From IMG/VR virus record IMGVR_UViG_3300009031_000221, positions 384,001 through 448,000 of that record: a DNA stretch of 64,000 nucleotides. One strand, given 5' to 3'. The translations under genes were made by a program, and so were the position numbers. This stretch comes from a virus (Duplodnaviria; Caudoviricetes). Numbering within the stretch: position 1 is the first letter of the stretch; each line of letters starts with the position of its first letter. Below, piece after piece: positions 222 through 64,000 of this stretch. The notes under the pieces are model-generated. The model worked only from the letters and a program-made list of their open reading frames with translations, was not told where the DNA came from and searched no databases.

Positions 222-1024
222 GGTTCCCAACGTAGACGATACTTCCCGTTCAGGATAGGAACGACCTGCATAGTGATATCATGCGTCCCCTTGGCACGGT
301 GAATCAATCCGAATCCATTTTGCCAGTTGGGACAAGGAGACCCGGGGACAATCCCATCCAAGCGGGCGAGAGTGCCGGGTGACATTGAATGGATGATTTT
401 AGTACCCTCGTATGTGTGAATTGTCCTACTCGCCATCTCTGTCCGGTGAATATGCCCGAAGCACGTATGGAACGGGCGGGATTGCAGCCTAGCCGCAACA
501 GTCTGCCCACCCTGACTGCGTACCAAATCCCCGTGTGTGCATTCGACTCCATTTGCACCCCATAGCCAGTAGGCCGCCCCATAAGGGCCGATGTACTGGA
601 CGTTAACCGCTGGGGCGTCTAATGCCATCAGGGAGGGAATGGATAGAGCGGAATACTTAGAACCTACAGGGGTCAACCCCATAGCCTCAGGTGCCATCGC
701 CATCAAATACTTCTGGATCCGTTGCTCGTGATTACCCTCGAGCCAGATAATGGGAACGGTACGACCTACAATAGCCCGAAGGCGTACCAACCATTCTCGT
801 AGCGTAATCATCGCCAACTGCGTCGTTGCCCTGTCCTCAGGACTGACAAGAAACTTCGTTGACCAGGATGCAAGGTCAAGGTTGTCCCCTAGCATGATAA
901 CTTCGCTCGGCTTGACAGCCCTTGCTGCGTCTAACACTGCCTCCATTGCTGCCGTATCGTGTAGGGGCTCAGAGCCATGAAATCCGACATGAATATCGGG
1001 TACAATTAGTGCGACCTGTCGCAT
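218..1024 (-). CDS. Calcineurin-like metallophosphoesterase
   Basis: Motifs DIHVG, GDNLD, GNHE, HGD, GHIH. Confidence 0.85.
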   Translation of the reverse strand: MRQVALIVPDIHVGFHGSEPLHDTAAMEAVLDAARAVKPSEVIMLGDNLDLASWSTKFLVSPEDRATTQLAMITLREWLVRLRAIVGRTVPIIWLEGNHEQRIQKYLMAMAPEAMGLTPVGSKYSALSIPSLMALDAPAVNVQYIGPYGAAYWLWGANGVECTHGDLVRSQGGQTVAARLQSRPFHTCFGHIHRTEMASRTIHTYEGTKIIHSMSPGTLARLDGIVPGSPCPNWQNGFGLIHRAKGTHDITMQVVPILNGKYRLRWEP

Positions 1025-1077
1025 CCGTTCCGCCTATTAGCCCAAAGTGAAATAGGGCCATATTTGCATATACGTCG

Positions 1078-1105
1078 AACCATACCCATCAAGATGGGTA
1101 TGGTT
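1078..1105. repeat. Perfect 13-bp inverted repeat with 2-nt centre
   Basis: aaccatacccatc-aa-gatgggtatggtt in intergenic DNA. Confidence 0.85.
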
Positions 1106-1135
1106 GCGATTATTGTAGCTGATCGATAGAAACAT

Positions 1136-1160
1136 TTGAACCCTTACGTTAGGGATTCAA
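1136..1160 (-). terminator. Hairpin just downstream of 1163..1582, possible terminator
   Basis: ttgaaccct-tacgtt-aggg(a)ttcaa; no strong U tract. Confidence 0.35.
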
Positions 1161-1162
1161 CA

Positions 1163-1582
1163 CTATTTCAAAGGGGCGCCTGAAGACGGGTTTGCAAGCA
1201 TCCCTTCGTTCAGATTGTTCAAGAAATCCGCAGCCATGTCAATATGCTTTGCTACGGTAAGTTCTCGCAATTCGCGAACTGCGAACATCTGGCAGGCCCG
1301 TAGCAACTGGTAGTACGCTACAATGCCGTCCTCATTATTGTGATTTGCTACAAGGTTACGGGCATGGAGGAGGATAGATGCAGGCGTGCCCATCTCCGTA
1401 GCTGCCTTCTCGAGCAACGGACGGATATGAGGGCGTAGCTCAGGATTCGTTGTCCCAAGCTTGATCAATTCTTCCCGTAGATCACTCGAAGCCCGCTTGC
1501 CCCGAATCAAAGGACGAATGTGGGGACGCAGTTTCGGATGGGTTGTGCCTAATTTGATTAGGTCTTCACGCAAGTCGATCAT
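1163..1582 (-). CDS. Hypothetical protein with two tandem ~26-aa repeats
   Basis: DLREDLIKLGTTHPKLRPHIRPL / DLREELIKLGTTNPELRPHIRPL; AGGAAC RBS. Confidence 0.8.
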   Translation of the reverse strand: MIDLREDLIKLGTTHPKLRPHIRPLIRGKRASSDLREELIKLGTTNPELRPHIRPLLEKAATEMGTPASILLHARNLVANHNNEDGIVAYYQLLRACQMFAVRELRELTVAKHIDMAADFLNNLNEGMLANPSSGAPLK

Positions 1583-1649
1583 GTTAGGTTCCTCGATAAG
1601 TCCTACGGGAGTAGCCCTATAGGGACTCTAACGGGATCCTAATTCCCAT

Positions 1650-2852
1650 CTACCCCTTGGTCAGTGCATTCATGGCAGTGTCACTAAGGAATGTGGTTTC
1701 CGCACCCCAAATGATAACCGCCAGCAATCCGAGGTAGACGATACCCACAATGGCACGATCCCGCTTGGAAATCTCGTAGTAGCTAGGACTAGGGTCACGT
1801 GCTTTCATCTCCATGATGCCCACAATTGCCATGATGGCAAGCAACACGCTATGGAAGTAGATCGTTGCAACCACCCCGAATCCGAATCCGAACTTGATGA
1901 ACCGCTGAGACAATGCCTGCACAATTCGACCCCCGTCCATCGGAAGCATGGGCAACATGTTGAACAGGTTGATCACGAACCCAACGTAGGCAATAGCCTG
2001 GAGCATCGGGGAATGGTAGACCATTGCCAGGATCATCGTGACCAGGGCGCCGACAGTGCCTAGCAGCGGACCACCCAGGCCAACCATAGCTTCCTTCCAC
2101 GATGAAGCGGGCATTTCCTTCAAGTCAATGACGGCACCAACGAAAGGGATGAACATAGGAGCGGAGGCCTTGATCCCCATCCGACGAAGGACATAGACGT
2201 GTCCAAATTCGTGAATTGCCAGGAGGATGACAAACCCCGCAGCGAAGGGCAACCCCCAAGTCCAGGCGTAAACCCCGATCATGAACAACATGGACAGGAC
2301 GAACTTGCCCTTGGCCAGGAGCTTGAGGGCAAGGACTGCCGCCAAGGCAAGGTACTGGTAGCCGGGCATCTTTTTCAGGAGGTCGTGGAACTTCCGAATC
2401 AACCAAGCGAACGGAATGGCGACGACGAAAAGTACGAACATCAAGGGTTGAAGCATCCACTTCTTCATGAACTGGAATGCAGGGCTCAGGAATTTCACTG
2501 CCCTCTTGTAGACAGGTTCTACGACATCAATGGCCTTGACCACCTTCCTGAAGACAGCCCGCTCTAGGCGTTTTTCCCATGGGACGTAATTGTACTCAAG
2601 GTCGATCTCGGCGCCCATGCCCTTGAGGATATCCGCATGCCCGAAACCCCTGGTCTTCAGCCACTTGTCATCCTTGTTGAAACGGGCGTTGACGGTGATA
2701 TCCCACTCAGGGGAATCTAGCAGGATGGCAGCCGCCCGTTCGTAGGCAACATTCGCATCCGTAGCCGCCTTCGCGACAATGCCGCTATCGATGACGGTGC
2801 CCGGAGTTACCGCCTTCAGGTTGGTAAAGAACAATTGCTCAGCGGCGTCCAT
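1650..2852 (-). CDS. Site-2 protease (peptidase M50) with soluble N-terminal extension
   Basis: HEFGH zinc motif, NLFNMLPMLPMDGGRI, multiple TM segments; start moved to ATG 2852 (AAGGAG RBS). Confidence 0.9.
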   Translation of the reverse strand: MDAAEQLFFTNLKAVTPGTVIDSGIVAKAATDANVAYERAAAILLDSPEWDITVNARFNKDDKWLKTRGFGHADILKGMGAEIDLEYNYVPWEKRLERAVFRKVVKAIDVVEPVYKRAVKFLSPAFQFMKKWMLQPLMFVLFVVAIPFAWLIRKFHDLLKKMPGYQYLALAAVLALKLLAKGKFVLSMLFMIGVYAWTWGLPFAAGFVILLAIHEFGHVYVLRRMGIKASAPMFIPFVGAVIDLKEMPASSWKEAMVGLGGPLLGTVGALVTMILAMVYHSPMLQAIAYVGFVINLFNMLPMLPMDGGRIVQALSQRFIKFGFGFGVVATIYFHSVLLAIMAIVGIMEMKARDPSPSYYEISKRDRAIVGIVYLGLLAVIIWGAETTFLSDTAMNALTKG

Positions 2853-3144
2853 GGCGGCTCCTTGTCTGTTTGATTGCGGGCATTTTACCGGTGGCAAGCC
2901 ACCATAGGTAATGTCCCTCACATGGGACATACCCTTTGCCGGTTAGAATTGCATGCGTGTGGCGCGGGTTCAGGGTACTTTGCACACGTCGGGGAAGCCC
3001 TTCAAAGGGCGTGCCCTTCAATTTGGCATCAATGAGGTAGAGGATATTGAACTCAACCCCCATGCCGAAACGAATACCACAACACCACGGGATGCCATGC
3101 TTGCGGCCTTCCTTGGCCCAGTCCATGATGTCCCGAATCTTCAT
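2839..3144 (-). CDS. Hypothetical protein
   Basis: ATGA overlap with the upstream stop at 3141-3144. Confidence 0.6.
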   Translation of the reverse strand: MKIRDIMDWAKEGRKHGIPWCCGIRFGMGVEFNILYLIDAKLKGTPFEGLPRRVQSTLNPRHTHAILTGKGYVPCEGHYLWWLATGKMPAIKQTRSRHGRR

Positions 3145-3605
3145 TTGATTGGCACCCATAGCGTATTGGTGTCGTACTTCAGGGGACTCATGGCATCCCG
3201 CAGATCTTTCGGGGCAGTCTTTCGTTTGCCTCGAAGGTAATTCAGGATGTCACACCGTCCGCCATAGGTAGCCGGAATGGCATGAGCATTAGCTAATTGC
3301 GCCGCCAGGAACCGATGATGTCCGTCGATGATGACAGGAGGCCCGATAGTTTCGTACGTGCAATCGTTGTCCAGTTCGATGGGTTCCATGGGGAGCCCTG
3401 ACCACATGCCCTCAGCCAAGTAATGAATCCGTCCCAGGTGCCAAGCCCTACCATCATCCCCGTAGACCTCCGTCCTCCAATGGGACTGGATCGGGGCTGC
3501 CATTACCTCTTCATCGGTAATCGTGCCCAAGCCTAACCGTTCCGCCGCATCGTAGAACTGAGCCAAGCGGTTGACGATGATGTAGTAGACGGGATCCTTA
3601 GCCAT
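3141..3605 (-). CDS. ParB/Srx-like N-terminal domain protein
   Basis: VIIDGHHRFLAA motif. Confidence 0.7.
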   Translation of the reverse strand: MAKDPVYYIIVNRLAQFYDAAERLGLGTITDEEVMAAPIQSHWRTEVYGDDGRAWHLGRIHYLAEGMWSGLPMEPIELDNDCTYETIGPPVIIDGHHRFLAAQLANAHAIPATYGGRCDILNYLRGKRKTAPKDLRDAMSPLKYDTNTLWVPIK

Positions 3606-3611
3606 GACAAC

Positions 3612-3740
3612 CTACTTGGCGGGGTTGCACATCTTCGTGCAGTCGCATTTGGGTGCCGGGATCTGCATCTCCAGGTACAGGAGCAATATGAACAGCCCAG
3701 TACTGAGTTTGTTGTTTCGAACCCAATTCAAGAACTTCAT
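3612..3740 (-). CDS. 42-aa small membrane/Cys protein (not in ORF track)
   Basis: MKFLNWVRNNKLSTGLFILLLYLEMQIPAPKCDCTKMCNPAK*, GGAG RBS, fills the gap exactly. Confidence 0.6.
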   Translation of the reverse strand: MKFLNWVRNNKLSTGLFILLLYLEMQIPAPKCDCTKMCNPAK

Positions 3741-4269
3741 GATGTTGTACTCCTACCCGTTGATCCAACGGATGTTTTGTTCACGTTCCGCTCGTTCGAC
3801 CTGAGCCTCATCGGCGAGGCGCATTTCCAGGGCACTCGAGAAGCCCTGACGGGTTGCCTTAGCATCCTCGGCATCCATACGGAACTGTTCAGCGATGGTT
3901 TCCGCCGCGCCAACCCAAGCCTTGGGCGAACGATCGCCCACCGGCAACAGGTCGTAGCATGCGGGATTGAAATTGCCCGTGAACCCGTGCCGGAACGCCA
4001 TGGAACGAAAGACCTCAAATGCCTGACGCCACATTTCCAAGGAGTGGCGCTTCATGTCGAACACGGCTTCTTTATCCTCGGGATGTGGCACGCCGATACC
4101 ATGGGTCTTGCAACGATGCCACGTATCGAACGGGGACAGGAGCCAACCGCCACGGCAAGGGCACGTGTCCGGACGAATCTCGTTCCAAGCGCCCGATTCC
4201 AGTTCACGGTAGATGTCAGCGTTCATCGTAGGTTCCTTCGGGGGCGTCGTCTGCGTCCCCCTGTAGTAT

Positions 4270-4296
4270 ATCTACGCTGCTATCGTGGAAAGTAAG
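4270..4296 (-). promoter_or_regulatory. Conserved promoter motif + leader hairpin
   Basis: CTTACTT-N12-GCGTAGAT; loop CAGACGA. Confidence 0.8.
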
Positions 4297-5466
4297 TCCA
4301 GGCTAGCTATTTGCCGTTTCCTTTGCCGGTTCTTTTGGCGAAATCCCGTAGGCGGCATCCAGCATATGGTCACAGAGGGACCGCACCTTCACGTCGAAGG
4401 TGTCATCCCAACCGGACATCGTACGCCCACGTTCAGCGCGTTCCTCGGCAATGAGTACCTTCAGTCGTTCCGCAAGACTCTGAATTTCATCCATTCGGTG
4501 TGCCATGATTCGCTCCTATACCAAGTTCAGCATGAAGGGTGCCTCAACGGGCTGCAGGTAGAAGGCAACCTGCCCTCCGCCAACCGGGATTTCATTCCAC
4601 ATTTCCCAGTCTTCCCATAGGGTCTGGCTGAGGAGTTGTGCGTTATCCAGGGAACCGAATTGCCCTTCCGCATCCAGGTAATCGCCGTTTCGGTCTACGA
4701 CCGCGTAGCGGAGGTTGATGTTCGTGAACAATGTAGACGCATTGGGGCCGGCGGGCTCTTCCTTGCACTCGGGCCAGATCGTGTACATCAGGTCGATGCG
4801 TTGCCCAAGCGTCAGGTAGTTCCATTCCGCACGGGTCTGCGCCCCATCCGGGTTCACGTACTCGCACCACAGGTTCCAATCGTTGGCAATTTGGAGGTTC
4901 ATCGGACGGGATCGCATGGGTGCTCCTTACAGGGTGTTGTAGAACTGGACGGCTCCATCCCAATCATGAGCCTGTGTACTCAGTACCTGATAGATAAGCC
5001 CTTCCGCGTCTGTATTCTTGACCACCCATAGGGAGTTATAGGCGTCAAGGACAAGGAACTTCATCCGTCCACTGGAATTTTGACCGCACGCAGCAACGAT
5101 ATGCTGCTGCGTATGCCAGTTGAAGATGTCATGCGGCTGAAGGACGTGTCGGGTATCGCGGCTCATGGGTGCTCCTTTAGACTTGCCAAGCCGGGGGCTT
5201 GGGCATTGGGGGAGTCGGTTCCGACCACCACCAACCCGCCCAGTCGATTTCGTTGGCCATCTTGACATTGGTCGTCAATTCGCCGTCAACGATCATGACC
5301 ACGATTTCATGTGCCCGAAGGCCGTCCTGGGTAGCGGTCTGGTAGCGACCCGGCTTGGTCGGCATTTCCTTCTGCCAGTGTCCATCCAAGTACTTCTGCC
5401 ACAAATCTTTCAGCGAAGACGATCCCATGTCCGGTTCCTTCAGGCATCGTTCGTGCCCTGTGATTC

Positions 5467-5493
5467 ATCTACGCTGGAAGGATGGAAAGTAAG
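5467..5493 (-). promoter_or_regulatory. Conserved promoter motif + leader hairpin
   Basis: Exact; GGCA-CGAACGA-TGCC. Confidence 0.8.
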
Positions 5494-6141
5494 TCAATGG
5501 TCATTGACCAGGGTTGCTGCCAACCCAATGGCAATCAGGTTGATGGGGTGTACACGATAGGCGTAGTGCGCCGCCCAGGCATGCTCGAACGGGGTTTCGG
5601 GCTTTCCGCCCTCTGGAACCCGTGCTTCCCGAAAGGCTGCTCGTGCCGCCATTTGCATAGTGCGATTCTTCTCGTCGTATCCTGCCAGAAGCATTGCGAC
5701 TTCGATTTCTTCGAGGTCGCGGTCACCAGCGATCCACTTGTCCGCCCAGTTATGCAGGTCTCCATCCGAAACCCCACCGTGGCATGCTTCCTTGGCACAC
5801 AGGATGCCGAACTTCACGCACTGTTCGTTCGTAGGCTTGGCGAACCCGACGATCTCACGGATCAAGGTCAGTTCCGTAGAACCTCCACGATAGCCGTACT
5901 CGATTCGGGTATCCCCGGAAGCTTCCGCCTCAAACATCCGCATGTTGTTCGATTGAACCTGGTGGTGTTCCGCCATCGGGTTCATGAGGAGGGCAAGCAT
6001 CGGGTCAGGATACCAGTGCAACCAACCCGGGCCGCAAAGGTTTCCTTCACCGCTAGTCGTCGCCTTTTCCCCCAAGGTCCATTGGAACTTGTTGCAAGTT
6101 TGCATGTTCTTGTCGGTCAACTTGTAAACTCGCATGCCCAT
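5494..6141 (-). CDS. Phage protein related to the DUF7666-like paralogues at 32760-34072
   Basis: LCGPGWLHWY...MFEAEASG...STELTLIRE, then KFGILCA...WADKWIAGD. Confidence 0.5.
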   Translation of the reverse strand: MGMRVYKLTDKNMQTCNKFQWTLGEKATTSGEGNLCGPGWLHWYPDPMLALLMNPMAEHHQVQSNNMRMFEAEASGDTRIEYGYRGGSTELTLIREIVGFAKPTNEQCVKFGILCAKEACHGGVSDGDLHNWADKWIAGDRDLEEIEVAMLLAGYDEKNRTMQMAARAAFREARVPEGGKPETPFEHAWAAHYAYRVHPINLIAIGLAATLVNDH

Positions 6142-6750
6142 ACCCTTCTAGTAGTTTGCGTTGTGGTAGACGACATTGACGGCATCAGCCACGGTCATGG
6201 CCTCATAGGGACTCACGTAGCCATGGTATTGTTCCTTGACGAGTTGGTTCAACCGATCCGCTTCGATGACGGCTTCCTCACGGGTCGTGGAAATGAAATC
6301 GAAGGACGTATCATCACATTGCATGACGGTGAACAATTCGGAAGCCGATGTCTTCATGGCGCTACTCCTTGGCCCAGGACTCTGCGGGTTCGTCGGACTT
6401 GGGATCGTTTGCCTTCATGGCATCGGGCATCAACGCCTTGATCCTCACGTTCAATGCGTCGCGCCGCCGCAGCAAATCCCGCATCTCTGCGTCGATAATC
6501 AACGAGTCCTTGCGGGCGTAGAACGCATCGGAGAAGTCCTTTCCGAATAGGTCTGCCAAGAAGCCAATGCGTTCCGCTTCGCAACGTTGCTGCGTGTAGG
6601 CGTCGTAGGCAGCAAACTCCCAATTGGTCATTTCCTCCGCTTTGTCGAAGTAGTTGATCCGCAGGCTACCGGCAGATCTTCCTTTCACAATCAGGTCCGC
6701 ATTCTTCATCGTCAGTTCCTATCTAGGGATCATTCGTCCCCACGCGAAGT

Positions 6751-6777
6751 ATCTACGCTGGATTGCCTGAAAGTAAG
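6751..6777 (-). promoter_or_regulatory. Conserved promoter motif + leader hairpin
   Basis: Exact; GGGA-CGAATGA-TCCC. Confidence 0.8.
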
Positions 6778-7955
6778 CTAACCCGACAAAATGGATGTGG
6801 AGGTTCAGACTCCATGTCAAACGGGGTGCTGATGAATGCCCTAAGTGTGTCGAATAATGATGATCCGGTTGATTCCGCCGTCTTAAAAACCAGTTCCCAG
6901 AATTCTACTTCCGGCAAGAATTCATACCGATCCACAGGGCAAAGGTATCGTATGTAAGGAATGCATCGCCCATCATTACGTGCCTCAAAGGCCCATTCAA
7001 TCAGGGTTGCTTTGTTGGCAAATGCGAAGGCTTCCTTCCACCATGGAAAGTAACTATGTTCCCATAGGAAATGCCGCCCTTGGACGGACAATAGTTGGTA
7101 TTTCTCCCAGAGGGTTGTTTGATCCATGACCTTAGACCACAACCACGGTGCGGAACTTCTTTCCCGCTTGAACCAAGGCGAATGCGAATCCTGAACCCTC
7201 CACGGTAACAAGCATGTCCGCTACCTTGGTATCCAGGCTGATATGCCCGACTGGCACACCGTTGATCTTGACTCCAGGCAATCCCTTCTTCGCATCCCCT
7301 CGGGAATCGAACGGGAACACGGCGAGGTTGCTGAACCCGAACTTTTGACCGTTGATGGTCATCGGTGCCTTGTCGATGTCCTGTTTGACTAGGAGATCCG
7401 CCAACGTCATGTCCTCCGCTTCCTTGTCATGGATCCATGCCGCCCCAACCTTCAGCAAGGCTAGGAGGGTATGGATATGCCATGTAGCGGTGGTAGCCAT
7501 GATCTAATAGCACTCCCGAAGTGTTCCGACGGTCTCGCCCGTTTCCTTGTCAACCACCGCCTGATAGTTGCCGTCCGCGTCCCCCGTAGGAACAACGTCC
7601 GCCTTGTCCAGGAGGGCGCTGGCCTCGTCGATACCCAGAGCACGCCGCATGGCCTCCCAGGTGGACTTGCCGCCCGACTGACGGCCATCTTGATGCTTGT
7701 AGACGTACATGGTTCAATTCCCCCGATAGACGGGCAGGTTGTACTCCGCGGCGAATTCCTCGGCTTCCTGCTTCGTGTTGAAGAAGTCTAACCAGAAGTC
7801 CGTGCCATCGACCTGAACGGCCCAACCGGCTTCTCCGTTCTCATCCGTGGGGTAGATGCGAACCATCACATGTTGGTCCATGTAATTCTGGCGCTGTTGC
7901 ATGACTTCAGTGATGCGCATGGAAGTTCCTTTGTAGGGATCCTCGTCCCTACTTT

Positions 7956-7982
7956 ATCTACGCTGCTAGGGACGAAAGTAAG
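7956..7982 (-). promoter_or_regulatory. Conserved promoter motif + leader hairpin
   Basis: Exact; GTAGGGA-CGAGGA-TCCCTAC. Confidence 0.8.
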
Positions 7983-8029
7983 CCTTCGCGGGTAACATAC
8001 GCATCATGCTCCCATAGGAGCAATAACAG

Positions 8030-8266
8030 ATGAGGTTCCCGATGTCCGCATTTCTAACCGCTATCGCAATGACATTGGCTGTTTTCAGCCCCGCCGATTC
8101 AGAATACGTGCCTATGACGTGTACGCAGCGGCATTGTAACATCGACACGAACTGTAGCTTTCGCTACAGCGCTTGGGCATGCATGTGTTGCCATTGCTGG
8201 ACGGATCACTGCGTTCCCGTGTCCCCGTGCCAGCCTGATCAGGGCTCATCTCCCGCATGTGATTAA
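8030..8266 (+). CDS. Small Cys-rich, probably exported protein
   Basis: Hydrophobic N-terminus plus 10 Cys. Confidence 0.45.
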   Translation: MRFPMSAFLTAIAMTLAVFSPADSEYVPMTCTQRHCNIDTNCSFRYSAWACMCCHCWTDHCVPVSPCQPDQGSSPACD

Positions 8267-8334
8267 TAGCTTCTCATGGGTAATGTATGTTACACGTTCC
8301 AATGATGGTGACGTGATACACACAGAGGTTACCT

Positions 8335-8589
8335 ATGGCTATGAATGCTTATGAAATCCGCTATGCGGTATTGTGCGATGCCCGTCAGATGCTTCAGGAT
8401 CAGTGGCACGTTGCCGTTGACTATGCCCAGTCGAAAGGCCCTAGTCGTTTTAGCTCCGGTGGAGTTGAAGCGGAAATTGACGAACCGTTGCCGCCTGCTC
8501 CGACCATTGAAGCTATCATGAAGTTGGCGAACGAAATGTACGATTTCGTACAGCAGTCCGCGCCGCCTCGTGCCCCTGTCAAGGGCTAG
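8335..8589 (+). CDS. Conserved phage hypothetical protein
   Basis: MNAYEIRY...PTIEAIMKLANEMYDFV pattern; GAGGT RBS. Confidence 0.65.
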   Translation: MAMNAYEIRYAVLCDARQMLQDQWHVAVDYAQSKGPSRFSSGGVEAEIDEPLPPAPTIEAIMKLANEMYDFVQQSAPPRAPVKG

Positions 8590-8927
8590 ACTTTGACGGC
8601 GAATGGGTGCGGCGGGTCTAGTGACCGTTCAAATGGTGCGAATGCCATCCTTTTGAACGCATTCAACCTCGATACCTTCCATTCCTTTGCCTTGGCAAAC
8701 ACCATTGCCCATAGTTCATCTTCGGGCATGAGCGTGTATCCATCAAACTGGGGAGGGATGCGTTTAATGTAGATGGGGTCACCCGCATTAAACGCATCCT
8801 CATCCAGGATGGACATGACGACATCCCTTTTGTTCATCCATGGGTACTGCCAAGCGTGCCAGATCTTGTGGCGTCCTGCCTTGGTTCGCATGAATTGAAT
8901 CAGGAATGTGTCAAGTTTGGGACTCAT
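8586..8927 (-). CDS. Hypothetical protein
   Basis: ATGA-coupled to the CPBP gene. Confidence 0.6.
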   Translation of the reverse strand: MSPKLDTFLIQFMRTKAGRHKIWHAWQYPWMNKRDVVMSILDEDAFNAGDPIYIKRIPPQFDGYTLMPEDELWAMVFAKAKEWKVSRLNAFKRMAFAPFERSLDPPHPFAVKV

Positions 8928-40886: not shown

Positions 40887-42041
40887 TTAGATGTCATTCA
40901 CGATGCCTTCATCAACATTGGCTTCCAAGCGCGGAATAACGTCGTTCCTCTTGGAAACCAGGACGTTGCATCCTGGGAACAACTTGAGATGCTCGACTTG
41001 GCGAACTCCCGCAAGGCTAGCACGGGTAACCTTGGCCCCGCCAAGAATGACCTCATCAAAGATCGCAACGGGGGTGATTCGGCCCGAGTTGCCAACCTGC
41101 CATTGGATATCACGGATGATCGTCCGCTTTGCCTCGAAGGGAAACTTGTAGGCGATCGAACCCTTAGGGCGCCCGCCCAAATCTCCGTGGATTTCCCGGA
41201 TAACCGTATCGTCAATCTCGACAACGAGACCATCAATTTCGTATCCGATCGCCTTCCGCTTGCTCGCACAGTAGATCTGGTATTCCGCCTGAACTTCAGC
41301 CAAGGCTTTCCATACCGACCATTTCGGCGTTTGGAACCCCATGTCTTCCAATGCCAGGAGTTCCGTGGACTTCGATGCCATGGACACGCCTTGCGGCATC
41401 AGGTTGTAGCTCTTGAATGTCAAGTAGGAGCACTTGGCGAAATCGGTCTGCCGCATCAACGTGCCCGTGGCAGAGTTACGTGGGTTGGATTCACCCGGGA
41501 AATGCCGTGCAAAGTCCGTGTGCATGATGATGACTTCGCCCCGAACCCAAACATTGGCGGGAGTCGGATTGCCATCAGGCAGGAATGGGGGAAGCATCTT
41601 CACAACGCCCTGCATCAACATGGCATTGCGAGTAACTTCCTGGCCAATGGAACCATCGCCACGAGTCACTGCCTGAACCAGCACCCTATTGAGGTAATGC
41701 ATGCTCAAAGAGCAACCGTCAAGCTTGTCCATGACGATCAGGGATGATTGAGCGCTGCAACTCGTTACCCAGGCCTGCATGTCCTCGAAGAGCTGTGCCT
41801 TGTTCAGGGAACTCATCGGGATGGTGTGCTTGACCTTGGGCCAACCACCGGCAGTCGGACCTTGCGACACGGGAGCGCCGATGGTCTTCAGGAATGCGTG
41901 GTTAGGATCCAACTTGCGGAGGTCATCCTCAACAGAGTCGTAGACCGGATCGCTGACCAGAGGGGTTCCGGCGTAGTATGCCGCTTTCCACTTGGTCAGA
42001 TTGGCAACCATCTGATCGATTTGTGCTTGGTTCGCGTTCAC
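40887..42041 (-). CDS. ligA: NAD-dependent DNA ligase, N-terminal half (Ia, adenylation, OB)
   Basis: YYAG.P.VSD..YD, KLDG, VRGEV, IDGLV, WQVG.SGRITP, NDVIP; GTG start. Confidence 0.92.
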   Translation of the reverse strand: MNANQAQIDQMVANLTKWKAAYYAGTPLVSDPVYDSVEDDLRKLDPNHAFLKTIGAPVSQGPTAGGWPKVKHTIPMSSLNKAQLFEDMQAWVTSCSAQSSLIVMDKLDGCSLSMHYLNRVLVQAVTRGDGSIGQEVTRNAMLMQGVVKMLPPFLPDGNPTPANVWVRGEVIIMHTDFARHFPGESNPRNSATGTLMRQTDFAKCSYLTFKSYNLMPQGVSMASKSTELLALEDMGFQTPKWSVWKALAEVQAEYQIYCASKRKAIGYEIDGLVVEIDDTVIREIHGDLGGRPKGSIAYKFPFEAKRTIIRDIQWQVGNSGRITPVAIFDEVILGGAKVTRASLAGVRQVEHLKLFPGCNVLVSKRNDVIPRLEANVDEGIVNDI

Positions 42042-57467: not shown

Positions 57468-57494
57468 ATCTACGCTGTTCCCACAAGAAGTAAG
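57468..57494 (-). promoter_or_regulatory. Conserved promoter motif, leftward member of the divergent pair
   Basis: Exact; GGCA-CGA-TGCC. Confidence 0.8.
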
Positions 57495-57508
57495 TGTCCT
57501 ATGCGTGA

Positions 57509-57535
57509 CTTACTTTCCTACCCATCAGCGTAGAT
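57509..57535 (+). promoter_or_regulatory. Conserved promoter motif, rightward member of the divergent pair
   Basis: Exact; GGGCG-ATGA-CGCCC. Confidence 0.8.
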
Positions 57536-58615: not shown

Positions 58616-59065
58616 GTAATACGGGACGCGAAAGACGCCCCAAGGAACCTACGATGCAACTTTCCCGATACAAAATCCTCACGGGGCCGCTGGCGGGTCA
58701 AATCGTGACGGCTCATCAACTTGAGCGTCGGGCTACCCCCACGTCGGAACTGGACAACGCACTAGGGAGCGGTATCTGGATCCCTTCATTGGGCGTGCGG
58801 GTTGCTGCGGATCAGGACGCCTACAGCGTTCCCTCGGCATATGTGGATCTGGTTGTCCCCTTTGACCGATTCAATCAGGAAATCTTCATCGGGGATACCC
58901 TTCATGCGGCATCGAAAGCAGCCGTCATTCGGGTCAAGGTTACGGGAATTGGCAAGTCCCATTGGGATAGCGGGCACAAGCGGAAACTCCGTGTCCAAGA
59001 CATCGACTCCGGGGCCACGTTGACCATCAACAACCCCGCCCACTGCATCAAGATTGTCTAGGGGA

Positions 59066-60076
59066 ATGATCATGGATCAAGCAGTCACAACTGAATCACA
59101 CGGCAAGTTGGCTTGCCTCAACTGGCAGACCCTGTCGGATGAGCGTGCCGCAACCGTCAAAGCCAATGGGAAGCTCCGTAGGGCTGCCCTCATCATGACG
59201 GGCAAATGCAACTTCGCATGTCCCTACTGCAAGACCCTGGGCGGGGACAGAGCCCCCACACGAACGAAATTCGATACCATGGCCAAGGTCATGAACATGA
59301 TCAACCACGGTCTCAAGGAACTCCGCCTGTCCGGTGGTGAACCTACGATGATTTCATGGTTGCCCGAGTTGGTTGCCATGGCTCATAGCAATGGCGTTCG
59401 CGTTGCCGTATCCTCCAATGGCTATGCTCCCGTCCGTATCTACGCAGCCCTGGTCAACGCCGGGGTTGCGGAGTTCTCGATTTCATTGGACTCCACGGAT
59501 CCCGAGGAAGCGGATCGCCTTGCCGGCGGACGAAAGAACGTTCTGGCCCGGGTCGAACGTACCATCAAGGCAGTGACGGACATGGGTGCCAAGGTCTACA
59601 TCGGCATGACGTGCTGTGCATCTCGTCGGAATCCCGAGGAAATGAAAGCCATCATTGACCGGGTTGCAGCCTTGGGCGCTACGGATGTCAAAATCATGTC
59701 CCTGGCTCAGGAAGGAACCATCGTTGATATGTCATGGCTGGATGATGCCACGGCAAAGCGGTTCCCCTTCCTTGCATGGCGGGCACACAACTTCAATGAC
59801 GGTCGGGATGTTCGGGGACTCCGTGAGGGTGATTCGCCCCGTTGTTCCCTTGTCCTGGATGACGTGACGATTGCGGGAGATAAGCACTTCCCCTGCAACG
59901 TGTACTTCCGTGAGGGAGGGGAAGCCATCGGGGACGTGAAGGATTCCGCTACCATGTTGGCGGATCGTGCGGTGTGGGCTGAAAACCACAACAGCCTTTG
60001 TGACCCGATCTGCAAGTCCATGTGCATGGATCTGCTCCGTACGTACAACAACCGCGTTGAGGAATTGAACACATGA
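59066..60076 (+). CDS. Radical SAM protein with C-terminal Cys cluster
   Basis: CNFACPYC, SGGEPT, SSNG, SISLD. Confidence 0.9.
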   Translation: MIMDQAVTTESHGKLACLNWQTLSDERAATVKANGKLRRAALIMTGKCNFACPYCKTLGGDRAPTRTKFDTMAKVMNMINHGLKELRLSGGEPTMISWLPELVAMAHSNGVRVAVSSNGYAPVRIYAALVNAGVAEFSISLDSTDPEEADRLAGGRKNVLARVERTIKAVTDMGAKVYIGMTCCASRRNPEEMKAIIDRVAALGATDVKIMSLAQEGTIVDMSWLDDATAKRFPFLAWRAHNFNDGRDVRGLREGDSPRCSLVLDDVTIAGDKHFPCNVYFREGGEAIGDVKDSATMLADRAVWAENHNSLCDPICKSMCMDLLRTYNNRVEELNT

Positions 60077-60649
60077 AACTGCAATGGTTGCCCAGACCTT
60101 CGACGGATCCCTATGGTTGTGGGTGGGAACTCGCAACCAATGACCGTCAATACCTCACCTATGATGGATTCGATCGCTTCGGGGACATCCGGGCCACTGT
60201 CATGGAAGAATCCACGGACAAATGGGTCGCGTACATTACATGGAAGGTCGATGAGAATCCTCCGAATGCCGAATGCAAGAAGGATGCGATGCTTTTGGCG
60301 GAAAGCAAAATCGAAGACGAGTGACTTACTTTTCCCATCGACAGCGTAGATGATACATGGGCACGGACGATGCCCTAGGACGCAGACGATGAACCCACAC
60401 ATGCCGCGATGCCAATGTGGCCACAGTTTCCTCAACCACTGGGCACCCCCTGACCGTTTCCGCCCTGCCAACACACCTTGTAAGGATTGTGATTGCGCCA
60501 GCTACCGCGGGGTGGTAGACGCAGAGCACCTGGCCCTCCTGCAACCAGAACTGCAACGACGCGGCGTGACGCCAAAATGTGATTGCAACGTACAAATCCA
60601 AGCGTTGGAAAAGAGAATTCAGGCCCTTGAAGCCCGACTGGCTCGATAA
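60073..60649 (+). other. Two hypothetical CDSs: 60073-60324 and 60389-60649 (Cys-rich)
   Basis: ATGA overlap; promoter plus leader. Confidence 0.6.
60325..60351 (+). promoter_or_regulatory. Conserved promoter motif + hairpin
   Basis: Exact; GGGCA-CGGACGA-TGCCC. Confidence 0.8.
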
Positions 60650-60659
60650 GGAAACTACG

Positions 60660-61238
60660 ATGTACAAGACTGGCTCCGGCCCCCTCAAGCGCGGCGAACT
60701 TCACGAGGTTCCCCCGGCAGCGGAAAACATGGGCATCCGTGCCCTGCGGGAAATCCCTTACCTCAGCTGCACCTCCGTTGACATCAACGAGGTTGACCAC
60801 ATCGGCCACGATGAGGGCGGTGTGGACATGGATCCCGCCTACCAGCGTGGGCACGTGTGGGAACCCGCTCAGGAGTCCGCGTTCGTTGGCTACCTGCTCA
60901 AGGGCGGCAAGGCTGGCCCGATTTGGGTCAACCGCTACGAGGATGCGACCACGGGCGGCGCCAACTGGTTCGACCTCCCCGTCACCATCATCGATGGCAA
61001 GCAGCGCCTGACCGCCCTCATCCACTGGACGCAGGGGGAAATCCCCGCGACCCTGAACGGAAAGGACATCTGGTACAAGGACTTGTCCATCATCGACCGT
61101 CGCATGCTCCCGCACCTGGATGTGTGCTACGTCAACATGACCGAGAACGACCAGATGCGGCTCTACCTGAACCTCAACAGCGGCATCGCCCACACCACGG
61201 ACGAACTCGACCGGGTTCGCGGCTTGCTGGCGGAATAG
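60660..61238 (+). CDS. DUF262 domain protein
   Basis: PAYQRGHVW, IIDGKQRLTAL, YLNLN. Confidence 0.85.
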   Translation: MYKTGSGPLKRGELHEVPPAAENMGIRALREIPYLSCTSVDINEVDHIGHDEGGVDMDPAYQRGHVWEPAQESAFVGYLLKGGKAGPIWVNRYEDATTGGANWFDLPVTIIDGKQRLTALIHWTQGEIPATLNGKDIWYKDLSIIDRRMLPHLDVCYVNMTENDQMRLYLNLNSGIAHTTDELDRVRGLLAE

Positions 61239-61540: not shown

Positions 61541-61942
61541 ATGTATGGTAAAGGATCCAAGATTATAGCGAAAACCTACATGAAAGCCCTGCGGGATCGT
61601 ACGGTTTGCGCTATATGTGGTCGGCAGCCTGTAGACTTTCACCATAAAGATCCCGACGCCAGTAAAGATAGATGGATAGCACACCTTACGGTCTTAGGGT
61701 TTCCAATCCCACGAATTGAAGCCGAACTAGCGGTATGTGAACCCCTTTGCCGCTCATGTCATATGAAACAGGATGGTAGATTAGCATTTCTGAACGCCAA
61801 CAAACCGTTTCCTAAAGGGGTGCAGTTACCTCCGAAGCCCTGTACGTCATGTGGTATCCCCGCCAAGCCCCTGCGTAAAGGGCTGTGTAATAAGTGCAAT
61901 CACCAAAAGCGTAGGGATAGCAAACGTAATGCTATCCTATAG
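61541..61942 (+). CDS. HNH-like endonuclease
   Basis: CAICG...DFHHKDP...LCRSCH. Confidence 0.7.
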   Translation: MYGKGSKIIAKTYMKALRDRTVCAICGRQPVDFHHKDPDASKDRWIAHLTVLGFPIPRIEAELAVCEPLCRSCHMKQDGRLAFLNANKPFPKGVQLPPKPCTSCGIPAKPLRKGLCNKCNHQKRRDSKRNAIL

Positions 61943-62227: not shown

Positions 62228-62254
62228 CTTACTTTTCGTTCTAGCCGCGTAGAT
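62228..62254 (+). promoter_or_regulatory. Conserved promoter motif + hairpin, drives PARP
   Basis: Exact; GGGCA-ACG-TGCCC. Confidence 0.8.
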
Positions 62255-62298
62255 ACCACATAGGGCAACGTGCCCTCCAAACGAGAGGAACAAAGAAC

Positions 62299-63855
62299 AT
62301 GGCACCGAATATCACCGAATCCGTTACCCTGAACTTCACGGATCTGACCGGCGACAAGACCGGTTGCACGACCCTGGGTTCGAACAAGTTCTGGAAGGGC
62401 TGGGTCGAAGACCTTGGCGGCGGACTGGCGAATTTTGAGTGCCGTTGGGGGCCGACTGGTACGCCCGGTTCGGACAAGGGTTCCGTGCGTGGCACGAGCC
62501 TGTCCTCCGCCTCCGAGCAACTCCGCAAGAAGGTTCGGGAGAAGGAGAACAAGGGCTACACCAAGCTCGAGACCCGCACGGACAACGAGGAAATGACGAA
62601 GGCGGCGGCAAAGGGCGTTGTCATCGCTGCCCTGCCCGCCACGACCACGAAGGTGGCGGCGGTCGCTCCCACCACGTTCCATCCCGAGGTTGGCCGTTTG
62701 CTGAGCACCATCTACGGATCAACGGCACAGACCGTCCGTGCGGGCTTGTCGGCACAGGCGGGTGCGACGGCGGACAACCCGATCGGCAACCTGTCGGATC
62801 GCCAACTGGATCTCGGCGGCGCCATCCTGGATGAGATTGCGGAGGAATTGCAGCGTACCTTCGGGCACGAAAGCGCCGCGAATCGCAGCACGTTGCTGCC
62901 GCTCTCCGGCGGCGTTCCCCGCAACGAAATCATCCAACTGACCAACCGCTTCATGTCCAACATCCCCCGCGAGATCGGGCGGGACATGCGGGGCCGTGAG
63001 AACCTTCACCGCCTCGTCCTGTCCAGCTATGAGCGCTTGGATGAGCAGCGGACGTTCCTTCAGTTGCTCCGTGACGCCCACTTGACCCAGGACGTGTTCA
63101 AGGCGGCGGGCGCTCAGGTCACGACCGGCGGCAAGGAACACGTTTGGTACGATGGCCTGAACTGCGACATCGACCTGTGTGATGTGGGAAGTGTCGATTT
63201 CAAGCGGGTTGCCGACATCTTCAACACGGCACAGTCCAAGAACAACGCCAATTGGTGGCGGAATGGCAAGCCCAGTGTCCGGGTGGCCCGTGTGTTCAAG
63301 TTCACCCGCAAGGGCACGAGCAGCCGGTTCGATACCTACGCTTCCAAGGTACTGTCCAAGCCCAATGCCGTGGGCAAGATCATGGCATTCCACGGCACAA
63401 GAACGGAAAATTTGCTGGGCATCGGCAAGTCCGGCCTCTTGATGCCGGAGAACTTGCCCCGTGGCGTGACGATTAGTGGCAAGGCCTTCGGGAAGGGGAT
63501 TTACCATGCTCCTGCCTGGAATGCGACGGGACACAAGATGATTGGGCGGCATAAGGTTGATGGTTTCAACGGGGCTTTCAAGTCGCTCAACTATACTTCG
63601 GCTCGCGGCGCCTACTACGGAGCGGGCAACACGTCCCCTTCCGCCTACATGTTCCTTCAGGAAGTCGCCCTTGGCTTGGCGGATGTCCACACGACGGCTT
63701 GCTGGGACAAGCATCGCCCCGATGGTTGGCCGATGAATGACTTCATCTTTGCCGCTGGCTCGGCCAACCAGGGCGGGTTCGTTCACGACGAACTGGTTAC
63801 GTTTGACCAGGATGCCCAGGTGTTCCGCTACTTGATGGAAATCGAGTGCATCTGA
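62299..63855 (+). CDS. WGR-domain PARP-like ADP-ribosyltransferase
   Basis: WGR-like NKFW...RWGPTG; regulatory-domain-like PIGNLSDRQL...LTNRFMSNIP; catalytic FHGT, GKGIYHA, HDEL. Confidence 0.88.
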   Translation: MAPNITESVTLNFTDLTGDKTGCTTLGSNKFWKGWVEDLGGGLANFECRWGPTGTPGSDKGSVRGTSLSSASEQLRKKVREKENKGYTKLETRTDNEEMTKAAAKGVVIAALPATTTKVAAVAPTTFHPEVGRLLSTIYGSTAQTVRAGLSAQAGATADNPIGNLSDRQLDLGGAILDEIAEELQRTFGHESAANRSTLLPLSGGVPRNEIIQLTNRFMSNIPREIGRDMRGRENLHRLVLSSYERLDEQRTFLQLLRDAHLTQDVFKAAGAQVTTGGKEHVWYDGLNCDIDLCDVGSVDFKRVADIFNTAQSKNNANWWRNGKPSVRVARVFKFTRKGTSSRFDTYASKVLSKPNAVGKIMAFHGTRTENLLGIGKSGLLMPENLPRGVTISGKAFGKGIYHAPAWNATGHKMIGRHKVDGFNGAFKSLNYTSARGAYYGAGNTSPSAYMFLQEVALGLADVHTTACWDKHRPDGWPMNDFIFAAGSANQGGFVHDELVTFDQDAQVFRYLMEIECI

Positions 63856-63998
63856 TAGGCGGCAATCTTGCGAACGTGATCTAGGAATTCTACTTCGGTA
63901 TGGTCACTCTTGGCATTGTTGCATGTCCAACAAGCAGGGTGACAATTCCCAGGAACGTATCCTTCGGAGCTACGAATCCGGTCAATTCCCGTATACCT
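63828..63998 (-). mobile_element. 3' end of an HNH endonuclease truncated by the window edge (not in ORF track)
   Basis: TGIDRIRSSEGYVPGNCHPACWTCNNAK...SIK*, similar to 54162..54938. Confidence 0.8.
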
Positions 63999-64000
63999 GA

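Follow-up and report, generated by a model that had tools for sequence, protein, structure and literature searches.

The window analysed here is a stretch of 64,000 nucleotides from a 536-kb groundwater phage genome (IMG/VR record IMGVR_UViG_3300009031_000221, positions 384,001 to 448,000), and it carries an intact PARP-type ADP-ribosylating gene that encodes three domains. The gene, P0001, occupies positions 62299–63855 of the window (all features described below lie on the plus strand) and, according to the ORF list and its translation, consists of a single open reading frame of 518 amino acids plus the stop codon. An earlier note on this DNA had placed the gene at 62228–63855; the open reading frame is indeed real and single, but its true start lies at 62299, and position 62228 instead opens a promoter-like bipartite box. 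This box, CTTACTTT-N11-GCGTAGAT (62228–62254), is an exact match and is located 45 nt 5′ of the start codon, while a Shine-Dalgarno-like GAGAGGA, read from the sequence (62283–62289), is located 9 nt 5′ of the ATG. With up to two mismatches allowed, the box was found 33 times in the window, against 0.01 expected, in all cases in the orientation of the genes, and 123 copies were revealed in the whole 536-kb genome. The PARP gene has its own copy, and its placement behind the main promoter class of the phage is borne out by these counts. Among the listed carriers there was no RNA dataset from which expression could be read; they comprised groundwater metagenome DNA runs only, from which the contig itself may derive.

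The domain structure of P0001 was established from profile matches and from a predicted structure. The Pfam models placed a WGR domain (PF05406) at residues 9–90 (36.5 bits; gathering cut-off 22), a regulatory domain (PARP_reg, PF02877) at residues 127–271 (39.3 bits; cut-off 26.8), and a PARP catalytic domain at residues 300–404 (47.8 bits; cut-off 26.7), the last match covering only the N-terminal half of the Pfam model; all three are far above chance level. In the AlphaFold model (mean pLDDT 79.7, pTM 0.71), the WGR domain (62299–62610, residues 1–104) is predicted as a beta sheet plus a helix with pLDDT values of 80–96. It is followed by a linker rich in Ala, Thr, Val, and Lys (62611–62676, residues 105–126), which is predicted to be disordered (pLDDT <50 at residues 105–123) and in that stretch is variable among the members of the clade, by a helical regulatory domain (HD; 62677–63168, residues ~127–290) with six predicted helices, and by the ART catalytic domain (63169–63852, residues ~291–518), for which the structural alignment reaches PARP1 residue 1008. 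The model is of low confidence at residues 368–384, adjoining the donor loop.

In sequence searches of the PDB, PARP1 was matched at E 6e-8 when P0001 alone was the query and at 3e-13 when a profile was used, and the top Foldseek matches of the model were the WGR-HD-ART chains of PARP1/PARP2 (E 4e-20). In the VIA comparison, residues 1–518 of the model were aligned to human PARP1 541–1008 with a Z-score of 24.5 (393 residues, rmsd 3.5 Å), and the whole-chain alignment also spanned PARP2 90–565, the WGR domain included (Z 22.9). The WGR-CAT chains of PARP1/PARP2 gave ~80 more aligned residues than the CAT-only structures. In more than 40 catalytic-fragment structures, residues 123–126 of the model corresponded to PARP1 661–664 and the alignment continued to the C-terminus, with 306–318 of the 338–350 target residues aligned. 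The combination of WGR, regulatory, and catalytic domains suspected from the sequence is thus matched from end to end in PARP1, and the helical segment does resemble the PARP regulatory domain in both profile search and structure prediction. PARP1 and PARP2 were placed slightly above PARP3 and PARP4 in the profile and fold rankings, although VIA Z-scores of 22.5–24.5 leave them effectively tied. The WGR fold occupies the very N-terminus of P0001 and the last ART strand its C-terminus, so that there is no terminal extension; packaging into the virion in the manner of T4 Alt was considered but appears unlikely.

Residue conservation was read from two alignments, one of 25 clade members (A1, mean column identity 71%) and the other of 22 diverse distant PARPs with 22–44% identity (A2). 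Residues H365, G366, Y402, K428, Y432, and E498 are invariant in both, and S429 is nearly so; the corresponding motifs of P0001 are FHGT (364–367), GIYHA (400–404), and HDEL (496–499). The histidine of the triad, H365 (63391–63393), is aligned to the histidine of PARP1 HGS, and the tyrosine, Y402 (63502–63504), to that of PARP1 GIYFA. The catalytic glutamate, E498 (63790–63792), is the sole invariant Glu in the C-terminal half across the 22 diverse PARPs. The H-Y-E triad named in the earlier note therefore stands, each residue being located in a universally conserved PARP column. Between Y402 and the donor-site motif K428-S429-x-N-Y432 there is an insertion of ~20 residues (405–427; 63511–63579) with a conserved D-G-T-N-G-A end; its residues D421, G422, and G425 do not vary in A1, it is modeled with a pLDDT of ~87–90, and most PARPs of A2 are without it. 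Judging from conservation and the model, P0001 is probably capable of catalysis as an ADP-ribosyltransferase of the PARP1/2/3 type.

The WGR domain is less regular. W50 and G51 are invariant in the clade, but the signature of P0001 reads W50-G51-P52, and the column of the missing arginine (P52, 62452–62454, equivalent to PARP1 R591 and PARP2 R153 in the alignments) is occupied by P, S, A, or T in 25/25 clade members; the same column holds Arg in at least 90% of the 22 diverse PARPs and in Klebsiella phage PARPs. Furthermore, the domain has an 8-residue clade-specific insertion in the WGR hairpin, around the invariant C23. The arginine is conserved in PARP1/2/3, and its replacement in PARP2 (R153A) yields an essentially inactive protein that forms no stable complex with DNA; K130, Y132, W151, K179, and K183 are further DNA-binding residues of PARP2, the four other than W151 being contacts of the DNA backbone (PMC6294510). 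In a mapping anchored on W151 = W50, these five correspond to K30, W32, W50, K78, and K82 of the phage protein, all of which are invariant in the clade. The mapping rests on a modest alignment, since the WGR-only profile gave weak matches to the WGR domains of the PDB (E 0.0025–0.09), and the tyrosine that contacts the 5′-phosphate in PARP2, Y201, lies past the end of the HMMER alignment and has no mapped phage counterpart. At the position of PARP2 N127 the phage protein has Gly, as does PARP1, and the arginine network may therefore simply be wired differently. On the other hand, because the loss of Arg is clade-wide, the canonical break-sensing switch may not work as in PARP2. The activation by DNA ends proposed in the earlier note thus agrees with the five contact residues that are kept but not with the loss of the one that PARP2 needs, and, as far as the alignments allow, activation of P0001 by DNA breaks appears less certain than first assumed.

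The relatives of P0001 form at least 120 clusters of full-length proteins with 52–83% identity, encoded on phage contigs that reach 530 kb in length, including many independent contigs of 280–530 kb. Among ~185,000 species genomes, a single MAG contig carries the gene, and the nearest relatives outside the clade in a library of 1.8 billion proteins are no more than 33% identical. In 50,697 GenBank phage records there was no near-identical DNA, and protein-level matches were limited to eight records, with 24–30% identity. The immediate neighbors of the PARP gene are different in every relative examined, and the context therefore gives no firm clue to its role. A tblastn comparison of the small flanking genes between the window and the relatives L006, L007, L013, L018, L020, and L021 revealed no similarity that would indicate a conserved partner, and neither the 378-aa Cys-rich convergent ORF nor the small neighbors matched a Pfam family. 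A gene for NAD-dependent DNA ligase is located one small gene upstream of the PARP gene in one relative and 2.4 kb from it in another; in the present genome the distance is 20 kb. The PARP gene lies in an accessory region rich in genes of defense and anti-defense types, represented by a GmrSD_N-like gene in the present genome and by anti-Pycsar, Type ISP restriction, and CRISPR-Cas genes in the PARP regions of relatives.

Elsewhere, the genome has genes connected with ADP-ribose and NAD. A MacroD-type macrodomain gene (genome 261170–261742, minus strand) is located beside the gene of the NrtR repressor within an NAD-synthesis island (genome ~259.9–273.5 kb); NrtR, NadE, an NMNAT-like protein, and Prs are all encoded in the genome, together with two ARH hydrolases. 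The best PDB matches of one ARH are ARH3 structures (E 3e-11), and by this similarity it could substitute for PARG. The PARP, macrodomain, and ARH genes were found together in both further clade records examined (2/2). The eraser and NAD genes are ~65–335 kb from the PARP gene, and in huge phages such genes are common for other reasons. The microbial PARG model PF10021, for which the control in Deinococcus was positive, had no match in the genome; PF05028 had none either, but its own control matched nowhere. No match to NAPRTase (PF04095) was found in the genome, nor any Pfam match for the 495-aa ORF upstream of prs. The genome region at 272–289 kb contains ArdC-like, GmrSD_N, NUDIX-M23, deoxyribosyltransferase-like, and DFP genes.

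A second, smaller PARP gene (mini-PARP), the product of which has no regulatory domain, is also present. Only in the present genome and in L006 does it lie within ~10 kb of the PARP gene; in one further clade record the distance is ~65 kb, and in a second one no mini-PARP was detected. Given this varying distance and the one absence, it was rejected as a fixed neighbor. A recent duplication of P0001 as its origin was ruled out by the BLASTP comparison of the two (E 0.17).

Based on these results, we suggest, with a probability of about 55%, that P0001 is a WGR-gated transferase of the PARP1/2/3 type that most likely handles breaks and nicks in the replicating phage genome. The gene would be transcribed alone from the private promoter class of the phage, and the ART domain of its product would use NAD+ via the H-Y-E active site. 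The helical regulatory domain probably restrains the ART domain until a nucleic-acid ligand is bound by the N-terminal WGR domain, whereupon the activated enzyme may modify itself, other proteins, or DNA ends of the infected cell with ADP-ribose. The precedent of two assayed bacterial PARPs makes a chain more likely as the product than a single unit. The most likely role would be to mark the breaks and nicks of the 536-kb genome during replication as well as to handle them. The MacroD-type macrodomain and the ARH hydrolases of the phage could take the mark off, and the NAD-synthesis island could restore the NAD+ consumed.

The length of the product is the point at which the nearest alternative departs from this reading. 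The triad, WGR, and regulatory domains had been taken together as the mark of a polymer-forming enzyme, but polymer formation is not deducible from them, because human PARP3, with the same WGR-HD-ART layout and H-Y-E, only mono-ADP-ribosylates proteins (PMC8053099). H-Y-E is necessary but not sufficient for the synthesis of ADP-ribose polymer, and PARP3-like as opposed to PARP1/2-like behavior cannot be read from the sequence of P0001. It is possible, although we consider it unlikely, that P0001 is a PARP3-like mono-transferase acting mainly on nucleic acid, in which case ADP-ribose would cap phosphorylated DNA (or RNA) ends, e.g., to shield phage DNA ends from host exonucleases or to mark nicks for ligation, and the NADAR-like, ARH, and macrodomain enzymes of the phage would remove the cap. 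Human PARP3 is activated by 5′-phosphorylated breaks. It modifies DNA ends as well as proteins and prefers DNA breaks over itself as a substrate; moreover, terminal phosphates are in vitro targets of PARP1, PARP2, and PARP3 alike, and ends that carry PAR are shielded against nucleases (PMC8053099). The presence of a MacroD-type mono-ADP-ribose hydrolase and of ARHs in a genome where no PARG was found is consistent with such capping, as is the ligase gene near the PARP gene in two relatives, whereas the ranking of PARP1 and PARP2 above PARP3 and PARP4, slight as it is given the tied Z-scores, and the polymer made by the assayed bacterial enzymes of the same layout argue for chains. We are more doubtful that the WGR domain no longer senses breaks and that the enzyme, gated by RNA, by a phage or host protein, or by ADP-ribose polymer, or else weakly constitutive, acts mainly on host proteins for takeover or counter-defense, as T4 Alt/Mod do with different chemistry. 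The clade-wide loss of the arginine required in PARP2, the insertions peculiar to the clade, found in the WGR hairpin and next to the active site, and the defense-rich accessory region here and in relatives all point in this direction; however, the other five DNA-contact residues are invariant, with the PARP1-like Gly the arginine network may simply be wired differently, and no target or partner was found.

The roles put forward in the earlier note, host takeover, NAD manipulation, or anti-defense, are conjectural. Other readings involve the NAD+ supply. In one, which we regard as improbable, the huge phages of this clade would have a closed ADP-ribose signaling circuit of their own: the Arg-less WGR domain would sense a ligand different from the classical 5′-phosphorylated DNA break (e.g., phage replication intermediates, RNA, or damage caused by host defense), the MacroD and ARH enzymes of the phage would release free ADP-ribose from the mark, this would derepress the phage NrtR and lead to NAD+ resynthesis, and the second PARP would serve as an ungated partner. 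It is still harder to believe that P0001 is mainly an NAD+ consumer, a controlled drain directed against the host or a competing phage while the NAD pathway of the phage protects its own replication. PARP activation does consume NAD+, and NrtR, NadE, the NMNAT-like protein, Prs, and a second PARP that lacks the regulatory domain would all suit this purpose; nevertheless, a conserved autoinhibited three-domain layout is an elaborate route to NAD+ hydrolysis, and a need to withstand NAD-depleting host defenses would account for the NAD pathway just as well. Finally, the idea of an inactive relic, or of a cellular gene misassembled into a phage contig, draws on general caution about metagenomic contigs and nothing else, and we consider it scarcely credible: the conservation pattern (no variation at any catalytic or donor-site residue, 71% mean column identity) and the phage promoter box immediately upstream already contradict it, and the occurrence of relatives on many independent phage contigs, with only one MAG contig among the species genomes, also stands against it.

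Overall, the clade of P0001 represents a strongly conserved stand-alone case on several phage contigs of ~0.5 Mb. What is specific to the clade, as the alignments indicate, is the replacement of the W-G-R arginine with the five other DNA-contact residues kept. In this clade, nature has exchanged the very arginine on which the DNA-dependent activation of PARP2 relies, and the contrast with Klebsiella phage PARPs, which keep it, would probe the WGR switch outside eukaryotes. Since erasers, an ADP-ribose-sensing repressor, and NAD-synthesis genes are present in the same genome, the phage might in principle be able to set the modification, remove it, and cover its NAD+ cost by itself. The view of the field is unchanged: PARPs as an enzyme class, their occurrence in phages, and the NAD pathways that jumbo phages encode had all been described before, and PARPs of jumbo phages appear both in Iyer et al. 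(2021; PMC7824862) and among the “NAD-jumbo phages” (PMC11662467). Phage and bacterial PARPs had already been annotated, and two of the bacterial ones assayed, so that the kind of enzyme is less novel than the earlier note implied. No biochemical characterization of any phage PARP was found in the searched literature.

Among the known systems, human PARP1 (PDB 4dqy chain C) and PARP2 (6x0l/6x0m) have the three domains of P0001 in matching order and with a matching arrangement in space, and share with it H-Y-E, the K-S-x-N-Y donor motif, and most of the WGR DNA-contact residues. The identity is 19–23%, however, and P0001 lacks the zinc fingers, the BRCT domain, and the basic N-terminal tail, has another residue in place of the WGR arginine (R591/R153), carries one insertion in the WGR hairpin and another behind the triad tyrosine, and has no known HPF1 or PARG partner. 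The PARPs of Herpetosiphon aurantiacus (HaPARP) and Clostridioides difficile CD160 (CdPARP) produce PAR in vitro, HaPARP in a DNA-dependent manner (PMC8120803, PMC5966428). Like P0001, they are WGR, helical, and catalytic PARPs of the prokaryotic world, a likeness drawn from their published descriptions; each has a cognate PARG, whereas none was found in the phage genome. The PARPs of the Klebsiella phages vB_KpM_FBKp34 (QQV91759.1) and 05F01 (BBK09217.1) have the three Pfam domains above the cut-offs and are annotated as PARP in GenBank, although the paper describing FBKp34 nowhere mentions the PARP. They are 24–28% identical to P0001 and ~90 residues shorter, retain the arginine of the canonical G-R-V-G, and have neither of the two insertions of P0001; their carriers are cultured phages of 141–147 kb, in contrast to the 0.3–0.5-Mb groundwater phages of the P0001 clade. 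T4 Alt, ModA, and ModB are likewise phage-encoded NAD+-dependent ADP-ribosyltransferases, but they are arginine mono-transferases of the R-S-E (cholera-toxin-like) class without WGR or HD (PMC8120803). P0001, which has no R-S-E triad, differs from them in its H-Y-E active site, its PARP fold, and its Pfam family, as the earlier note had recognized.

According to our analysis, the PARP gene is a single ORF on the plus strand (62299–63855), which the ORF list and translation give as 518 aa. The earlier note had placed the start of the gene at 62228; at this position there begins instead a promoter-like box ahead of it (CTTACTTT-N11-GCGTAGAT; 62228–62254, plus strand), and a Shine-Dalgarno-like GAGAGGA can be read on the same strand 9 nt before the ATG. 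The window spans positions 384001–448000 of a 536,053-bp virus record, the sequence of which is present in groundwater metagenome runs. Pfam assigned residues 9–90 to a WGR domain (36.5 bits against a cut-off of 22), residues 127–271 to PARP_reg (39.3 against 26.8) and residues 300–404 to the PARP catalytic domain (47.8 against 26.7). Because only the N-terminal half of the Pfam catalytic model is matched, the C-terminal half was checked by structure and alignment.

The AlphaFold2 model, built on 25 relatives, had a mean pLDDT of 79.7 and a pTM of 0.71, with low-confidence stretches in the linker 105–123 and at residues 368–384. Its best Foldseek matches were WGR-HD-ART chains of PARP1 and PARP2 (E 4e-20 to 1e-18). 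VIA-align matched model residues 1–518 to PARP1 541–1008 in PDB 4dqy chain C (Z 24.5, 393 residues, rmsd 3.5 Å); with catalytic-fragment structures, the model from residue 123–126 onward corresponded to PARP1 661–664 to the end, with more than 90% of the target aligned. The proposed three-domain architecture (WGR, regulatory and catalytic) is borne out by these above-cut-off Pfam matches and fold matches, and structural alignment of the model indicates that the helical region folds like the PARP regulatory domain.

The catalytic motifs quoted previously were located at residues 364–367 (FHGT), 400–404 (GIYHA) and 496–499 (HDEL). The H-Y-E triad that they were taken to form (H365, Y402, E498) is invariant both in the 25 aligned clade members (53–82% identical) and in a diverse alignment of the PARP with 21 relatives of 22–44% identity, found by searching 1.84 billion representatives exhaustively. 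In the latter, 17 columns are invariant, among them H365, G366, Y402, K428, Y432 and E498, with E498 as the sole invariant Glu of the C-terminal half; HMMER places H365 at the HGS motif of PARP1 and Y402 at its GIYFA motif. Judged by sequence, the triad is intact, as is the K-S-x-N-Y donor-site motif, and therefore the enzyme is very probably active. Between Y402 and K428 lies a clade-specific insertion of about 20 residues, ending in a conserved D-G-T-N-G-A.

The sensor domain shows a different picture at one position. The W-G-R arginine, present in at least 90% of the diverse PARPs, is Pro in the phage protein and Pro, Ser, Ala or Thr across all 25 clade members. A deeper relative (P0122; 44% identity) has both the arginine and the 8-residue hairpin insertion of the clade, so the insertion is the older change and the arginine loss the later one. 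In PARP2 the equivalent R153, conserved as PARP1 R591 and PARP3 R103, touches N127 as well as the DNA on the 3′ side of the break; the R153A variant fails to form a stable complex with DNA and has essentially no activity (PMC6294510). Aligning the clade WGR profile with PARP2 WGR on the anchor W151 = W50 pairs the PARP2 DNA contacts K130, Y132, K179 and K183 with K30, W32, K78 and K82, all invariant in the clade; this alignment is weak alone (E 0.0025–0.09), yet it agrees with the Pfam match and the fold. The N127 position is Gly in the phage PARP, as in PARP1. Nucleic-acid binding has probably been kept, and in our reading the WGR switch would be wired otherwise than in PARP2. Two cysteines of this domain, C23 (codon 62365–62367), which sits inside the 8-residue insertion, and C48 (codon 62440–62442), are also invariant in the clade.

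Full-length relatives at 52–83% identity form at least 120 clusters in a 90%-identity database, and at least 13 of these clusters are on contigs of 280–530 kb. At 50% clustering only a few clade representatives remain (70, 45 and 44% identity), all others being at most 33% identical; the exhaustive search returned 381 matches at E ≤ 1e-3 and nine at E ≤ 1e-30. Relatives were found on four IMG/VR contigs and, among approximately 185,000 species genomes, on one 27.6-kb MAG contig. The clade is phage-restricted and strongly conserved.

The assignment of the gene to the main promoter class of the phage was correct, since it has its own box copy at 62228–62254. The window contains 33 boxes (4270–62254) versus 0.01 expected, always in the orientation of the genes, and a back-to-back divergent pair (57468–57494, minus; 57509–57535, plus) marks the strand switch near 57,500. 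Genome-wide, 123 copies were counted, densest between 200 and 536 kb, with none at 40–100 kb and 130–200 kb. Downstream, a convergent minus-strand ORF for a 378-aa Cys-rich protein (63828–64000, continuing to position 4166 of the stretch L001 outside the window) shares the last 28 nt of the PARP gene. Given its own box and this overlapping convergent gene, the PARP gene looks monocistronic.

Upstream on the plus strand are a radical SAM protein (59054–60076; CxxxCxxC, 76.9 bits) and a GmrSD_N/ParB-like protein (60579–61238), each with its own promoter box, and a Cys/His-rich ORF of 133 aa (61541–61942). The small ORFs near the PARP gene matched no Pfam family, nor did the 378-aa ORF, which has repeated HNH-like motifs; the two Cys-rich ORFs are possibly homing-endonuclease-type insertions flanking the gene. 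Each relative examined has different genes immediately beside the PARP, and no similarity is detectable among the small flanking genes of this window and those relatives; therefore, context indicates no fixed partner. The site is a fast-changing defence and counter-defence neighbourhood.

Several relatives carry recognizable genes nearby. In a 528-kb sister phage (L013), the region 1–9 kb upstream of the PARP orthologue holds a type I-C-like CRISPR-Cas set (581–8839; Cas3-like, Cas5d, Csd1, Cas7) and a TnpB/Cas12f-like gene. A Type ISP/MmeI-like restriction-modification protein of 1002 aa follows the PARP in L007 (7639–10647), and in L006 an anti-Pycsar Apyc1-like gene (999–1778) has the PARP about 4 kb downstream. 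In Klebsiella phage 05F01 a radical SAM gene adjoins the PARP gene; since it lies ahead of a gene for an anaerobic ribonucleotide reductase, it probably encodes the activase of that enzyme, and the presence of radical SAM genes beside PARP in both phages is probably coincidence.

Elsewhere in the genome, an apparent minus-strand operon (259859–261742; L017 860–2743) encodes the only macrodomain, of MacroD type (best PDB matches O-acetyl-ADP-ribose deacetylases, MacroD2, E 5e-32), next to an ADP-ribose-sensing NrtR repressor (NUDIX and NrtR winged helix) and an NMNAT-like protein, with NadE and Prs farther along the same island. There are two ARH-family genes, one DraG/MJ1187-like and the other with ARH3 as its best PDB match. 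PARP, Macro and ARH co-occur in both further clade records examined; in the 315-kb relative G001 (156308–156660) the Macro match is split over two adjacent frames (profile positions 1–68 and 77–118), perhaps through a frameshift or an error in sequencing. The NAD-dependent DNA ligase of the window (40887–42041, minus strand; 383 aa) has adenylation and OB domains only, without HhH/BRCT. Full-length LigA (575–651 aa in relatives) lies one small gene upstream of PARP in L006, and in another relative the distance between the two is 2.4 kb. About 6 kb downstream of the main PARP, outside the window, the genome encodes a second protein with a PARP catalytic domain (301 aa; genome 453926–454831, plus strand; L011 1273–2178; PF00644, 40.3 bits). 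It has FHGT, GIYTG and HNEY motifs and a Cys-rich C-terminal tail, and lacks WGR and helical regulatory domains. Sequence comparison rejected its recent duplication from the main PARP; L006 has a homologue at a similar distance from PARP (32% identity, E 3e-16), and the protein is not a constant neighbour among the relatives examined.

What the earlier note observed is confirmed, and its interpretation, a nucleic-acid-activated polymer-forming enzyme, is supported in part. With a probability of about 0.55, we consider the PARP to be active, autoinhibited and gated by nucleic acid, and to modify its own chain, other proteins or the ends of DNA inside infected cells. In this reading, nucleic acid would relieve the autoinhibition, and ADP-ribose would then be placed on these targets during infection; a polymer would be a likelier product than single units, with the handling of phage DNA breaks as the most likely service. 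The enzyme could instead be a mono-transferase like PARP3 or one that caps DNA ends, a tentative alternative that we hold to be the less likely one. The lost arginine could also mean a sensor rewired to another ligand and action on host proteins, which the invariant DNA-contact positions make rather doubtful.

Huge phages commonly carry eraser and NAD genes for counter-defence. The Macro, ARH, NrtR and NAD genes and the PARP could possibly form a write-erase-resynthesise loop, a link we only infer because these genes lie some 65–335 kb from the PARP and are so common. A controlled drain of NAD+ is improbable. That the gene is an inactive relic or an assembly artefact is contradicted by its conservation and promoter box, and we give this hardly any weight against a nucleic-acid-gated enzyme.

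The exact three-domain layout is on record in reviews for bacterial PARPs, of which HaPARP (DNA-dependent) and CdPARP synthesize PAR in vitro and are each accompanied by a cognate PARG (PMC8120803), whereas profile search found no PARG in the phage genome (PF05028 and PF10021; the PF10021 control matched Deinococcus, the PF05028 control nothing). Iyer et al. (2021) reported that a few jumbo phages have PARPs, for which they proposed a phage-ART-like action with polymers (PMC7824862), and in a 2024 survey "PARP1" was one of the NAD-dependent enzymes listed for jumbo phages of the gut (PMC11662467). In GenBank, a gene of the cultured Klebsiella phage vB_KpM_FBKp34 is annotated as a PARP comprising WGR, regulatory and catalytic domains, and the paper on that phage leaves it undiscussed; Pfam confirmed all three domains there and in 05F01. 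Both Klebsiella phage PARPs keep the W-G-R arginine, whereas it is replaced in the clade. Three-domain phage PARPs are thus already known as a kind, and the clade PARP is a new, divergent representative, noteworthy for its natural loss of the WGR arginine, its clade-wide conservation in phages of 0.3–0.5 Mb and its co-resident eraser, NrtR and NAD genes.
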